A DNA stretch of 33,821 bases from a virus (lineage: Duplodnaviria > Heunggongvirae > Uroviricota > Caudoviricetes). The DNA lies in the IMG/VR virus record IMGVR_UViG_2671180458_000002; one strand, written 5' to 3'. The position numbers were made by a program. Below, one piece after another: positions 28,001-33,821 of the stretch (position 1 is the stretch's first letter; the number at the start of each line of letters is the position of its first letter).

Positions 28001-31000
28001 GATGACAGCCGTTGGCGAAGGTGAGTTACTCATCGGCTGGAGTGGTACAAGCGGTGCTCATGCTCCGGCATTTATTCGTTCACGACGGGATACGACCGAC
28101 GCAAACTGGTCGCCGTGGGCGCAGCTTTACACCTCGGCTCATCCTCCTGCAGAGTTTTATCCAGTCGGTGCACCAATCCCGTGGCCATCAGATACCGTTC
28201 CGTCTGGTTATGCCCTGATGCAGGGGCAGACTTTTGACAAATCTGCATACCCGAAACTTGCAGCCGCTTATCCGTCAGGCCTGATCCCTGATATGCGTAG
28301 CTGGACGATTAAGGGCAAACCTGCCAGTGGTCGGGCCGTATTGTCTCAGGAACAGGACGGCATTAAATCGCACACCCACAGCGCCAGCGCATCCAGTACG
28401 GATTTGGGGACGAAAACCACATCGTCGTTTGATTACGGCACTAAATCCACGAATAACACCGGGGCGCATACGCACAGTGTGAGCGGTACAGCCGCAAGTG
28501 CCGGAAACCATACTCATAGTGTCACAGGCGCATCAGCAGTCAGCCAGTGGTCACAAAATGGGTCAGTACATAAGGTAGTGTCTGCGGCCAGTGTGAATAC
28601 AAGTGCTGCAGGAGCGCACACTCATAGTGTCAGCGGCACCGCTGCATCTGCAGGTGCACACGCACATACTGTCGGTATTGGTGCTCATACGCACTCGGTT
28701 GCGATTGGCTCACATGGACACACCATCACCGTTAACGCTGCTGGTAACGCGGAAAACACTGTCAAAAACATCGCATTTAACTATATTGTGAGGCTTGCAT
28801 AATGGCATTCAGAATGAGTGAACAAGCACGGACCATAAAAATTTATAATCTGCTGGCCGGAACTAATGAATTTATTGGTGAAGGTGACGCATATATTCCG
28901 CCTCATACAGGTCTGCCAGCAAACAGTACCGATATTGCACCACCAGATATTCCTGCTGGCTTTGTGGCTGTTTTCAACAGTGATGAGGCATCGTGGCATC
29001 TCGTTGAAGACCATCGGGGTAAAACGGTTTATGACGTAGCGTCAGGGGACGCGTTATTTATTTCTGAACTCGGTCCGTTACCGGAAAATGTTACCTGGTT
29101 ATCGCCGGAAGGGGAGTTTCAGAAGTGGAACGGCACAGCCTGGGTGAAAGATGCAGAAGCAGAAAAACTGTTCCGGATCCGAGAGGCGGAAGAAACAAAA
29201 AACAGCCTGATGCAGGTAGCCAGTGAGCATATTGCGCCACTTCAGGATGCTGTAGATCTGGAAATCGCAACGGAGGAAGAAACCTCATTGCTGGAAGCCT
29301 GGAAAAAGTATCGGGTGTTGCTGAACCGTGTTGATACATCAACTGCACCTGATATTGAGTGGCCTACGAACCCTGTCAGGGAGTAATCATTGGGATTATG
29401 CCGCAGCACGTCTTAAGCAAGAACGTGCTGCGGTTGGATGCTATTTTTTCCCTGAAGCGGAAAACATTACTACAGTACCTTGAACCTTGGTTTTAACATT
29501 CTCGAAATGCTCTGAGAGTATATGTGTTAAGCCTTCTTCGGAATCTTTTGTGTTTGAAAAGATGCCTTTCTGATTGTAAATACGCATCAGTTTTTGACCG
29601 AAGCTATTGTGCACAACTCCATCGCCAAGAATTGTGGCTCCGTATAGAGTTCCATCGTCAGTTAAGGCCTGCGCCGCATTGCGTATTACACAGCTTTTTG
29701 TAGATATATTTCCAGGCAGGCAGTGAAGAAGGTAAAACATGGAAATGGAATCAAATTGACCATGTAACGCCGCGGGATAAGGTTCAAAAACATCATGGCT
29801 AATTTTATGTTTAATTTTTGATTCCCCAGCCCTTGTAGATGCCGCGTTCAGGCTAGCTTCGTTCAAATCCATTAAAGATATCAGACTACTCTCAGGTACG
29901 TGAGTAAGGTAAAACCCAGTTCCAACACCAATATCCAGATGGTTGTTACCTAAATGTTCCAGAAAGTGTGGAAGAAGGTGTTCCTTTGTAGGACATCCCC
30001 ATGCAAGCCGATTTGATACTCCCAAAACCCACCAGTCATAAAGCTTTAGGGTAAGTGGTGTGTAAATTTTAGCCCCATCATCTGTGTTTTTTTTCATTAA
30101 TTTCACCATGTTATAGTTTTATTTGTGAATTAAATCAATTATGGCGATGAATTACAAGGGGTTAAATGCTGCCGCAGCATAGCGATATTGAAATAGCCTG
30201 GTATGCTTCGATACAGCAGGAGCCGAATGGCTGGAAGACCGTCACCACACAGTTCTACATCCAGGAATTCAGTGAGTATATTGCGCCACTGCAGGATGCT
30301 GTAGATCTGGAAATCGCAACGGAGGAAGAAAGATCGTTGCTGGAGGCATGGAATAAATATCGGGTATTGTTGAATCGTGTTGATACATCAGTAGCTCTGG
30401 GTATGAAGCTGTTTGTAACTCATGTTACAGTAACAGCCATTACTATCTCGAAGGTGCAAAATGTATATTGATTTGATATTTTATAAATTTACTTCGAATC
30501 TGGCACGTCAACTTTTGATTAAAGTAATATCAGTTTTCGGCGAAAAAGGACCGTGTACATGAGACGATTTCATACAAGAATAACAAAAATATGAATATGC
30601 TCCCAATGCAATATATGTTTTGCATTGGGAGCAAATAGCGGAATATTTTGAAATTATTGTATTTCTGCTTCAGAATTTCCTGGGCAGTATATATTTTCTA
30701 TTTTTTGTGGAGTGATCAGGTGATGTACAACTGCTTTATCTACACATAAATTAACTCCGGTGAGAGCTAATGTATGCCCATCACCATTTATTGTTAGTAA
30801 CGGGCTGGAAAATTTCTCTGCCATCTTACGGGCATTAATCCAGGGCGTTGTTGGGTCGTATTTGTGTGCTACAAACAGTAAACCAGAGGGCAGAACAGTA
30901 TTTTTCAGGCGAGTTTTGTTCAGGTCGCTATGTATTGGCCATAATTCACAAAAATCAGGTGAATCGGAACGTCCATTGTCAAAGTTAATAGCCGGGAAGG

Positions 31001-33821
31001 CATTCGCAAGAGCGTCTTTTCGGGATTTTCGCTCTTCTGGTGTTAATTGCTCATCCCCCTGATCTACACAGAGGATTACCCCCGAAGCATCGCTTGACTC
31101 TTCTGAGGCTATCGGAGCACTGAGCGCAGTTTCAATTTCATTACTGACAATCCCCTGAGAGAACTGGCGTATGGCAGTTGCAAGGGTTGGCCATGATGAA
31201 CGCCATAGCAGAAGGTCTGTTGTTAATGATATGAGTTCATCTGAAGATATATTTTCTCCCTTACTGTCTAATAAAGGTTTGTGATGTAATTTTGATAATA
31301 GCTCATGGAACTGAGTTATTGCCTTATCTCTGTCTGAAGAAAGCGGGCAACTTTTTGTACGCGCACACCAGGATGCAAAGCGATCAAACGTTTCCTGATA
31401 ACTCTGTGCCTGTTTGAGTTGCCATGTGAAGTTGTCCTCCAGGTCATCGATATCGACGACTCCATCAAGAACGATAGATCTTACGTTGTAGGGAAAACGT
31501 TCTGCATATAAGGCTGCAATTTGAGTTCCATACGAATACGCCACGGCTGTCAGTTGTTTATCCCCCAAGGCTTGCCTAATACGATCAATATCGTATACAG
31601 CCTCGTTAGAGCCGATATGGCGAATGACTTCGGCTCCGGTATTATGGATACAGGCATTAATTTTATTTAATACTTGTTGCTTTTCAGTTATGTTTTCCTG
31701 AGTCTCTGTATCTGATTGCCGGCAGTTTATTGTCGGAGTGGACTGTCCGACGCCTCGAGGATCAAATCCAATAATATCCCATGACTCACGAAGATTTGTG
31801 ACTGGCCAGTCAAAGTTAATATAAGGATTTATGCCTGGTAACCCGGGACCACCACTTATTATCAGGATACTTCCTTTATGCTTGCTTTTTGCCGGCAATT
31901 TTGTCAACGCTAGTTTGACTTGTGATTTTTTTTCATAAGAAGCATCTCCGCCTGTGTCTGTATATTTTAATGGAACAGACAAATAACCACATAGTAAGTC
32001 AGGAGACGGTTTTTCCTCACCAAACCAGTGGTTGAATTGACTGGCCATACAGGATTGCCACTGTATCTGCTGGGCAGATACGGTTACTGGTAGAAGTAAC
32101 GTTAAAACAACTTTGAAATGAGTAATTATTTTTCGCATTGTGTCTCTGAATATCGGAATAAAGATAAGATTTGAATATATTGAGGTCTTGTGTTGCGGTA
32201 AGAGATTACACGTTATGACATAGGTTAAATGCTTACAAAATTAGTGGATATTGTCTACTTGTAACTGTAAACAAATTCCCCGGGGTTATACAATACCACC
32301 GGGGAGAAAATCTGGTTAACTTCGTTAAAAGGTGTACTTAAGACCAGCAGTAGTGATGAAGTTATAGTTTTCTATGCCTGCACCATTTTTGCTGTAGTCT
32401 GAAGTGTTATCATTGTGATCATAAAGTGAAGTATTACCTTTTTTATTCGTAACCCGATTCCATGCGCCTTCAACATAAACTTTTGCGTTAGGTGTTACGT
32501 AATAACCTGCATTGACTGCAACAGAATAGTAATTTTGGTCTTTGACTTTACTGCGATAAGTGATTCTTTTTCCTGGGTCATAGTGCTCATCGTTATCAGA
32601 TGCTTCCACCCAGCCGCTGTATTTAAATGTGCCACCTAGCTCAAAATCTTCATAACGATAACTTCCAGTCAAGCCAATGTAGGGCATTTTAAAACGTTGT
32701 TTGTAGCCGATTGCTCTTTCTCCATTCGGGAAGGAGCCGATATCATCTCTGAATCCCTCCTCAGAACTGTAGATATAGGAACCACCTCTGGCTGTAAAGC
32801 TATAACGGCTTTCCTGATATCCGGCCATGAGTCCCAGGCGGTAATTGGGTTCGTTGAGGAGCCAGCCTTTGATATTCAGATCAAATTCGTTGGCATAATT
32901 GAGTTGTGTATCAGGGTGCCTACTTTCATCTGTCCAGGTTCCGGGGTTACTGGAATCCATCCAGTCCTGATCGACCATATTGCCACCTCGGCTGCCGAGA
33001 GTAGTCCAGCCCGCAGCCCCAATAGATATCTGGGGCATCAAATCCCAATTAATTGCACCTTTAATAATTGCAGCGTTATTGAATTTCCAGTCGAGTTGAC
33101 TGACTTTTCGGCCTCCTTCTTCAGCTAGATAAACGCGCTCTTTTGTTTTTCCGCTCAGAGTTCCAAGACTAATGTCCGCATTTATGTTGTCAGGAGTAAA
33201 CGATATAGTCTCGGTAGAAGCAAAAGAGCTGATCGCAATAGGGGTTGTCAGGACTATTCCCAGAAGTTTCGCCCGCATAAAAGTTCTCCATTCAATCGTT
33301 TTAATGATTGAATATGTATTTTTTATATCTAACTTAATGAGTCAATTACATATTGCTCCACTGTTTATATTTTGTTTAGTATTGAATGATTATCACAATG
33401 CGTCTATCTGTTTTTGGTTTAATTATCTGTTATTGTTTTATATTGCGGTTTTACTGTGTGGTTTTTTTATGCTTTTGTGGTGTTTTTATCTATTTAAGCG
33501 CCATGCCTTTAGAGGCATATAAGCGAAAATAGCATGAGGTTTATCCTCAATTGCTATGTTTTTTAGTACAAAAAAGAGGGACAAAACTGAGACACATAAG
33601 GCCTCACAATGGCTTGCAAGGCTTTACATGTTTTGAGGTAGTGGGACGTGTGAGCGCAGAGATGGCGCGGTAAGTTGTTGACTTAAAATGTCGTTCTAGG
33701 AACTTCTAAGTCGTGGGCCGCAGGTTCGAATCCTGCAGGGCGCGCCATTTCTTCTTCATTTATGCCCGTCTTATCCGTTTCCGCTTTGCCCTTCACTGTC
33801 CTTGACCCACGATATTCAGAC

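Follow-up and report, generated by a model that had tools for sequence, protein, structure and literature searches.

In the viral record IMGVR_UViG_2671180458_000002 (Caudoviricetes), a 33,821-nucleotide stretch of prophage DNA that we call the window, a gene for a 494-residue protein adjoins the omptin protease gene ompT. We consider it probable, with moderate confidence, that this protein (hereafter the hydrolase) is a Sec-exported, disulfide-stabilised serine peptidase of the MEROPS S33 Hip1/tripeptidyl-aminopeptidase (TAP) type, carried as cargo of an omptin cassette and acting on the envelope of the host cell. In the mechanism that we propose, the precursor would be cut after Ala22 and, being without a lipobox, released into the periplasm as a mature enzyme of ∼52 kDa, in which ten conserved cysteines would form disulfides. 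Catalysis would be carried out by Ser202, Asp428 and His455, the main chain at Gly97 and Tyr203 providing the oxyanion hole, as the counterparts of these residues do in Hip1 of Mycobacterium tuberculosis. The likeliest chemistry would be peptide-bond cleavage in peptides or unfolded envelope proteins, with hydrolysis of small esters a likely side reaction, as it is with Hip1. Transcription would either read through, in part, a hairpin located behind the omptin gene or start at a weak promoter that belongs to the hydrolase gene itself, and would stop at a strong terminator. The product would serve lysogenic conversion at the cell envelope rather than phage structure or replication.

An earlier reading made from the sequence alone (the sequence-only reading) had proposed a 494-residue reading frame at this place, and we recovered it exactly (Table 1). 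The SGGPG motif (residues 95–99) and the C-terminal Asp and His motifs that it described are likewise there, with Asp428 in DPTTP and His455 in GDGH. Its nucleophile elbow AYSYGT is also present; however, the pattern A-Y-S202-Y-G-T is strictly AxSxG and not the GxSxG that had been named, the counterpart in Hip1 being GYSYGT. The gene is as AT-rich as had been suspected, with a guanine-plus-cytosine (GC) content of 42.2% (35% at third codon positions) compared with 57.5% in the head/tail structural module of the same window. A chance reading frame is excluded by a Pfam match with an E-value of 3e-33, a ratio of nonsynonymous to synonymous divergence (dN/dS) of 0.11–0.16, and presence of the gene in 1254 of 5426 complete Escherichia coli genomes.

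Assignment of the hydrolase to a family rests on profile searches, direct homology and a structural model. Both Abhydrolase_1 (PF00561, the match just mentioned, 115.9 bits where 25.8 suffice) and the TAP-like C-terminal domain Abhydrolase_4 (PF08386, E 1.7e-14, 54.2 bits against a cut-off of 21, residues 386–479) scored above their cut-offs. In a phmmer search of PDB sequences the best matches were all chains of M. tuberculosis Hip1 (E 3.5e-51, residues 21–475). An AlphaFold2 (AF2) model built from a 35-sequence alignment was confident, with a predicted local distance difference test (pLDDT) score of 87.9 and a predicted template modelling (pTM) score of 0.89. When this model was compared with the PDB by Foldseek, the top entries were again Hip1, with template modelling (TM) scores of 0.76–0.82, followed by TnmK1/K2, and with prolyl aminopeptidases far behind. 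The model contains a nucleophile-elbow core with the triad order Ser-Asp-His: strand 196–201 leads into S202 and helix 203–214, D428 follows strand 420–427, and H455 follows strand 447–453. The alpha/beta-hydrolase fold proposed from the sequence alone is thus borne out by Pfam, by homology to Hip1, by a conserved triad and by the AF2/Foldseek comparison, fold and triad being found in profile and structure searches alike.

The 35 aligned sequences span Proteobacteria and Actinobacteria (E. coli, Salmonella, Serratia, Pseudomonas, Acinetobacter, Nocardia and Mycobacterium), and across them S202, D428, H455, G97-P98-G99, Y203 and T431 are invariant. Each of the ten cysteines is invariant or nearly so, and nine of the ten align with cysteines of Hip1. 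G97, Y203 and T431 align with Hip1 G110, Y229 and T466, and the catalytic Asp and His are separated by 27 residues in both proteins. Hip1 itself has the triad S228/D463/H490 with S228 being catalytic, contains five predicted disulfides, and acts on azocasein, peptides and GroEL2 (PMC4022732); its oxyanion hole is formed by Gly110 and Tyr229 (PMC13041806). A classification of alpha/beta-hydrolases groups Hip1 with tripeptidyl peptidases as one of three S33 clusters (PMC11878206). Taken together, the sequence and model comparisons make membership of the hydrolase in the S33 Hip1/TAP subgroup well supported. Prolyl aminopeptidase (S33.001, TIGR01249) was considered and rejected, as its profile reached 35.8 bits against a cut-off of 259.75 over residues 167–263 only and structural TM scores were 0.32–0.36. 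A fold search of BFVD returned generic alpha/beta cores only (TM ≤0.37), with no close viral structural relative in that database.

The N-terminus is built like a Sec signal peptide: a positively charged n-region (MRK) precedes 12 hydrophobic residues that form the core (mean Kyte-Doolittle 2.35), and a cleavage site lies between VSA and QQI after residue 22. A site of the form VSA followed by (Q/R)QI is kept in four cassette variants though the leader sequences of the paralogues have diverged, and residues 1–20 have low pLDDT in the AF2 model. No lipobox was found in the N-terminus. We place the start at M1 because the region upstream of M31, including Cys30, is conserved, because a Shine-Dalgarno sequence precedes M1 in each lineage, and because gene calls of the Prokaryotic Genome Annotation Pipeline (PGAP) agree. 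Some phage records, such as that of 2G7b (L006, 6091–7485), and PHROG 20134 instead begin the protein at Met31 (464 aa), so that the signal peptide is lost together with Cys30, a conserved residue. Nothing supports the name "putative lactone hydrolase", which is of RAST style. Signal peptide and conserved cysteines together point to an oxidising extracytoplasmic compartment, where disulfide bonds could form. Of the earlier description of the protein as "secreted", the export signal is what stands, with its n-h-c layout and conserved cleavage site; for an E. coli protein with ten conserved cysteines and no lipobox the predicted default destination is the periplasm.

The hydrolase and ompT are accessory ("moron") cargo of temperate phages, as the sequence-only reading had supposed, and occur inside att-bounded prophages and in the packaged genomes of isolated phages. 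In the window the attR core, which is the right prophage end, lies beyond ompT, so that both genes are inside the prophage; a scan of the window for tRNA genes found none, the att core being a 50-nt fragment of tRNA-Arg only. The isolated phage Turner is 97–99.9% identical to the window over 22–27257 and 29401–33749. Phages Turner, 2G7b and PhiR26_1, the last of which was propagated on K-12, share a gene order in which int and attP are followed by ompT, the hydrolase, the tfa remnant, the methyltransferase and then the tail-fibre genes. In E. coli O157:H7 Sakai the gene ECs_1662, annotated "hydrolase", adjoins ompT (ECs_1663) inside the annotated prophage Sp8. The pair is found at three chromosomal sites, by envY, by minE and by uspF/ompN, and at the last of these it abuts cdtABC. 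In the window the hydrolase gene is on the strand opposite to the late genes and outside the essential phage modules. Its claimed position between the tail-fibre module and ompT held, with the tail fibre (25770–28802) and tail-fibre assembly (28802–29386) genes followed additionally by a methyltransferase gene and a tfa remnant before the hydrolase is reached.

The association with an omptin gene extends well beyond this prophage. An omptin gene lies directly upstream, in the same orientation, in the window, in a cdt prophage (L003), in a metagenomic contig (L092) and in L007/F plasmid. The classical F plasmid and IncF plasmids carry a 76–78% identical hydrolase paralogue directly downstream of ompP, and in metagenomic contigs an 82% identical hydrolase paralogue comes after a third omptin, itself 80% identical to OmpT. 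Omptin and hydrolase identities run in parallel (99.1/94.9, 79.7/81.9 and 70.5/76.3%). The dN/dS ratio is 0.11–0.16 for the hydrolase (synonymous divergence, dS, up to 1.1) and 0.04–0.12 for the omptin, with a dS of 0.8–2.8 between diverged cassette lineages; both genes are under purifying selection. Of the 5426 complete E. coli genomes in the census, 3095 have ompT, against 1254 with the hydrolase and 837 with appY. A probe across the ompT-hydrolase junction was intact in 1234 genomes, which means that ∼98% of the hydrolase copies are joined to ompT. As judged from these sequence comparisons, omptin and hydrolase form an old two-gene cassette that appears to have diverged as a unit, on lambdoid phages with ompT and on F-type plasmids with ompP, and the two enzymes may cooperate.

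The third omptin lineage (L092–L094, from ENA and Logan contigs) is ∼80% identical to OmpT and OmpP both, and is found near conjugation-related genes (SLT, ArdC) and an Afa/Dr-type usher with its hydrolase partner kept. We rejected identification of the L092 omptin (4865–5812) as ArlC or as OmpP as sequenced on plasmids, since its best match among 72,556 plasmids is ≤82%. More distant relatives of the hydrolase, at 52–53% identity, are also on mobile DNA, namely Salmonella Eastbourne plasmid-like contigs (L089, L090) and Serratia plasmids (L008, L095), where the neighbouring genes are ccdAB, PIN/MazE toxin-antitoxin, fimbrial, amidohydrolase or S8 peptidase-autotransporter genes or insertion sequence (IS) elements.

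The terminator hairpin that had been ascribed to the gene folds with a free energy (dG) of -24.4 kcal/mol (z -6.2), and 0 of 200 shuffled sequences fold as well. The spacer that separates the hydrolase from ompT measures 184 nt in L003, 188 nt in L092 and 92 nt in the ompP cassette, and a scan of the window's spacer for sigma-70-like promoters gave no site of at least 9/12. A second hairpin follows the omptin stop codon. It is kept in ompT, ompP and third-omptin cassettes (L003, L092, L007, L099) and in K-12, despite a gene dS >1, and is probably a terminator or attenuator of ompT. The ompP cassette has ∼35 nt between this hairpin and a strong Shine-Dalgarno sequence. In a microarray study of Sakai, ECs1662 and ompT were both transcribed in exponential phase in uninduced cultures, and upon entry to stationary phase they fell by log2 2.53 and log2 2.72, respectively, both belonging to one expression cluster (PMC2241611). 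These data are compatible with attenuated read-through that starts at the ompT promoter, without proving it, and the two genes may be co-transcribed. A study of a cystitis isolate reported "ymcE, a putative cold shock gene" on the downstream side of ompT, at a distance of 186 bp (PMC6854850, Desloges 2019, section 3.5). Because this distance equals the ompT-hydrolase spacer, the gene so named is probably the hydrolase, mislabelled by automatic annotation.

In K-12 the equivalent place holds ybcY', tfaX, appY and ompT. Alignment of the window with this DLP12 interval gave sharp breakpoints: homology runs through tfaD-ybcY-tfaX to window position 30395 and is back at 32275, three bases past the post-ompT hairpin, which marks the exact breakpoint of the appY replacement. 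A further class of ∼1000 genomes, of the uropathogenic E. coli (UPEC) type, lacks window 30193–32168 and keeps 156 nt of the ompT-hydrolase spacer together with the start of the tfa remnant, with the junction in ATTGAA/ATTTGAA. Because spacer remnant and tfa start are both kept and the junction falls in short repeats, we interpret it as a deletion scar. This scar, together with the plasmid and metagenomic cassettes, argues that the hydrolase layout is ancestral. The cargo swap proposed by the sequence-only reading is real as to the slot, which appY does occupy in K-12 DLP12, and not as to its implied direction. By these comparisons, K-12-type and UPEC-type strains lost the hydrolase independently, both the appY state and the deletion being derived.

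Table 1. Features of the window that bear on the hydrolase and its surroundings.
Feature	Position	Strand	Remarks
Hydrolase coding sequence	30654..32138	-	494 aa, ATG start, TAA stop; orthologue of O157:H7 Sakai ECs_1662
Signal peptide, residues 1-22	32073..32138	-	MRKIITHFKVVLTLLLPVTVSA, predicted cleavage before QQ; Sec/signal peptidase I (SPase I) type, no lipobox
G97-P98-G99 codons in SGGPG loop	31842..31850	-	Predicted oxyanion-hole glycine Gly97 = Hip1 Gly110
Predicted nucleophile Ser202 codon (AYSYGT)	31533..31535	-	= Hip1 Ser228; invariant, aligned, codon checked
Predicted catalytic Asp428 codon (DPTTP)	30855..30857	-	= Hip1 Asp463; invariant, aligned
Predicted catalytic His455 codon (GDGH)	30774..30776	-	= Hip1 His490; invariant, aligned
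Intrinsic terminator of hydrolase gene	30598..30633	-	14-bp perfect stem, 8-nt loop, T-rich tail; ∼20 nt past stop
Spacer between ompT and hydrolase gene	32139..32324	-	186 nt, weak Shine-Dalgarno GAGA
Hairpin after ompT stop (CCCCGG...CCGGGG)	32278..32306	-	dG -19.8 kcal/mol, z -2.6; stem bases invariant in five cassettes
ompT, outer-membrane omptin protease	32325..33278	-	Pfam Omptin E 3e-130, NCBIfam NF008222 708 bits; 99.1% identical to K-12 OmpT
Module differing from K-12	30396..32274	.	1879 bp; K-12 holds 1529-bp appY module instead; blastn and K-12 annotation
Segment missing in UPEC-type strains	30193..32168	.	1976 bp, bounded by short repeats ATTGAA and ATTTGAA
tfaX-like tail-fibre-assembly remnant	30166..30471	+	Pfam Caudo_TAP, C-terminal part only; PGAP partial pseudogene in L001, L002
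Class I S-adenosylmethionine-dependent methyltransferase, intact	29441..30109	-	Pfam Methyltransf_12/23/25; K-12 counterpart pseudogene ybcY
attR core, copy of tRNA-Arg (argU) 3' end	33700..33749	+	98% match to annotated tRNA-Arg 3' end in L100; phage Turner homology stops at 33749

Several observations weigh against a peptidase that belongs functionally to an omptin cassette. Approximately 60% of the ompT-positive genomes are without the hydrolase, so that ompT does not need it. Conversely, no omptin was found within 6 kb of relatives at ≤53% identity (a Salmonella plasmid, Budvicia, Serratia, Pseudomonas and ∼80 actinobacterial loci among the matches listed). The actinobacterial matches come from a family-alignment scan of a genome collection in which 80 loci were listed, 3 of them gammaproteobacterial; closer relatives were examined contig by contig. 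Since the distant relatives are free of omptins, the enzyme can do without one, and shared ancestry could by itself account for the linkage; pairing is then a feature of the Escherichia mobile-element clade and not of the whole enzyme family. The expression cluster that the two Sakai genes share is very large, and is hence weak evidence for co-regulation. With regard to chemistry, Hip1 was first described as a carboxylesterase and the structural relatives TnmK1/K2 are not peptidases. Several residues of the S1 pocket moreover differ from Hip1 to the hydrolase (Arg232 to Gln206, Lys469 to Ile434 and Ala465 to Thr430; Hip1 sites from PMC13041806), for which reason the specificity of Hip1 is not transferable. 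Finally, the searchable literature, with most subscription journals outside it, contains no biochemical or genetic data for the hydrolase or for any proteobacterial member of its clade.

The alternative that survives best, though we regard it as somewhat unlikely, is that the linkage is historical only. The enzyme would be real and exported, the pair would have been captured once as adjacent cargo, and the hydrolase would act alone, for instance by trimming imported or periplasmic peptides in nutrition or envelope turnover. The omptin-free homologues speak for this explanation, as does the lack of the hydrolase in most ompT-positive genomes, and if the hairpin behind ompT ends transcription completely, the two genes would be separate transcription units. 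However, the pair has survived a dS of ∼1–2.4 as well as phage and plasmid transfers, always in the same order and orientation, the spacer of the ompP cassette is only 92 nt, and in ∼98% of carrier genomes the hydrolase is joined to ompT.

A second alternative concerns the chemistry. The hydrolase could be chiefly an esterase or lipase whose target is a lipid or acylated component of the envelope (lipoprotein, phospholipid or the acyl chains of lipopolysaccharide) or a host lipid or lactone. Hip1 has been deposited as "Carboxylesterase A" and hydrolyses p-nitrophenyl butyrate (PMC4022732), the S1 residues of the hydrolase are unlike those of Hip1, and automatic labels include "lactone hydrolase" and "pimeloyl-ACP methyl ester carboxylesterase". 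Such names are nevertheless generic labels for the fold, and in the S33 subgroup every member characterised so far, namely Hip1 and TPP A/B/C of Streptomyces, is a peptidase (PMC4022732, PMC11878206). The next structural relatives after Hip1 and TnmK are in addition prolyl aminopeptidases. We therefore give the esterase a small chance; by analogy with the characterised subgroup members, peptidase rather than esterase activity is to be expected.

The preferred reading of an envelope-directed peptidase can be extended to a two-layer defence module, a proposal that we put forward tentatively and think doubtful as a whole. The surface omptin would cut cationic host-defence peptides or proteins, and the periplasmic S33 peptidase would destroy what passes the outer membrane, be it fragments or uncut peptides, or would process an envelope protein that resistance requires, with phages and F-type plasmids spreading the pair.

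Temperate phages often carry defence genes in a cargo slot near the tail-fibre genes and the att site. The hydrolase occupies such a slot, and the PADLOC-DB "TAP-like protein" model PDLC01094 (C3a206), part of a candidate defence set, matches it over its full length (E 6.8e-56), which could indicate anti-phage defence or superinfection exclusion in which an exported hydrolase attacks incoming phage parts or alters a receptor to the benefit of the prophage. We consider this quite improbable, as the PADLOC match is at family level only and similar in strength to the Hip1 match, the paralogue is equally conserved on F plasmids beside ompP, and the adjacent genes include no defence-type partner such as a nuclease or ATPase. 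That the gene is a decaying passenger with no current function, as its independent losses in K-12-type and UPEC-type lineages, weak Shine-Dalgarno sequence and lack of a clear promoter in the scan might suggest, is hardly credible given a dN/dS of 0.11–0.16 across deep divergence, a full-length reading frame in ∼1230 genomes, invariant catalytic residues, cysteines invariant or nearly so, and a transcript detected in Sakai.

The gene has been annotated for years under the names "hydrolase", "putative protease" and "alpha/beta hydrolase", and in PHROG 20134 as "unknown function". Work on cdt prophages mentions "rorf1, a putative protease of EDL933 prophage CP-933" and "rorf2, OmpT-like protease" (Toth et al., as cited in PMC4606577). 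It is an accessory gene and not a well-characterised core gene of E. coli. The searchable literature holds no functional study of it, no statement of its homology to Hip1 and none of a systematic pairing with omptins, and as most subscription journals lie outside that literature a prior mention is possible.

The hydrolase belongs to a known enzyme family, and its genetic association is of modest interest and could be tested with little effort. In M. tuberculosis, Hip1 has been validated both as a virulence factor and as a drug target, and an E. coli relative spread by temperate phages (O157:H7 Sp8, cdt-converting phages) and F plasmids is, on sequence grounds, a candidate for a role in envelope defence or host interaction. 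OmpT has been studied mostly in K-12 and UPEC reference strains, both of which are without the partner gene, whereas enterohaemorrhagic E. coli (EHEC) and many commensals keep the hydrolase. If the two-layer module were true, most OmpT biology would have been studied without the natural partner of the protein; if the enzyme is a simple housekeeping peptidase, it is just another annotated accessory hydrolase.

Other features of the prophages around the hydrolase deserve mention. Cargo varies in the slot that separates the tail-fibre-assembly gene from the methyltransferase/hydrolase genes (L001 8077–10290; L002 1626–3839; L003 5831–7931; phage Turner, L005, 10729–12385). This slot holds a Mn-catalase with two ferritin-like proteins and a general stress protein in O27:H7 and O157:H7 prophages, cdtABC directly against the hydrolase stop codon in one prophage, and a DNA invertase with small open reading frames in phage Turner. 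The methyltransferase gene, a member of the function-unknown family PHROG 2132, is flanked by 132-bp direct repeats (29210–29341 and 30259–30390, ∼87% identical) that are copies of the 3' end of a tail-fibre-assembly gene, which suggests insertion by recombination at that end. The side tail fibre (25770–28802, plus strand) has 1010 residues with an Ala/Ser/Thr-rich repetitive centre (approximately residues 120–470) and C-terminal His-rich "HTHSxSG" repeats. In the lysis/late-regulation region of the prophage, an intact 365-residue reading frame (2276–3373, minus strand) lies over an nmpC-homologous region that is ∼94% identical to K-12 DNA. In K-12, nmpC is a pseudogene, split and interrupted by an IS element; the orthologue of the intact reading frame in L001 is labelled "porin" by PGAP.

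Among characterised proteins the hydrolase is most like Hip1 (Rv2224c, CaeA; PDB 5UGQ, 7SFM, 8E5W, 9MD7/8), with which it shares full-length homology, ∼27% identity when structurally aligned and a TM score of ∼0.8. The likeness includes the alpha/beta core with its lid, the TAP-like C-terminal region, the Ser/Asp/His triad, the GGPG and Tyr elements of the oxyanion hole, the equivalent of Thr466 and the cysteine pattern, and Hip1 is extracytoplasmic as the hydrolase is predicted to be. Unlike Hip1, the hydrolase belongs to a Gram-negative host, is encoded on phages and plasmids, and has a plain SPase I signal peptide and an AxSxG elbow. Hip1 cleaves GroEL2, whereas nothing points to GroEL2 as a target of the hydrolase. 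With TAP-type S33 enzymes, which are exported or cell-associated serine peptidases (PMC4022732, PMC11878206), it shares the Abhydrolase_4 domain, a likeness drawn by subgroup and not by direct sequence comparison. TnmK1 and TnmK2 of tiancimycin biosynthesis (PDB 8E18, 8G5T) are close in structure (TM 0.74–0.77) and detectable by sequence (E 4e-18 and 2e-08); however, they are cytoplasmic natural-product tailoring enzymes of Streptomyces with 18–22% identity, and the context of the hydrolase is unrelated to biosynthesis.

At the level of the locus, AppY of K-12 DLP12 shares with the hydrolase the slot between tfaX and ompT; it is an unrelated AraC-type regulator encoded on the opposite strand, a derived state, and present in 837 genomes compared with 1254. 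The hydrolases of the F plasmid (WP_072145210) and of IncF plasmids (WP_001263869) have the same length, signal-peptide cleavage site, catalytic residues, and place and orientation after an omptin gene, with a hairpin between. In contrast to the phage gene, they are plasmid-borne, are partnered by OmpP (70% identical to OmpT), and follow a spacer of 92 rather than 186 nt with the stronger Shine-Dalgarno sequence AGGAG. The closest counterparts are Sakai ECs_1662 in Sp8 and "rorf1" of the cdt-I and cdt-IV prophages. These prophages have other integration sites, by minE or uspF/ompN, and other cargo (ISEc8, a catalase cluster, cdtABC), but the gene is the same: at the nucleotide level O157 strains are 99.6% identical, and the protein of the cdt-phage variant is 95% identical.

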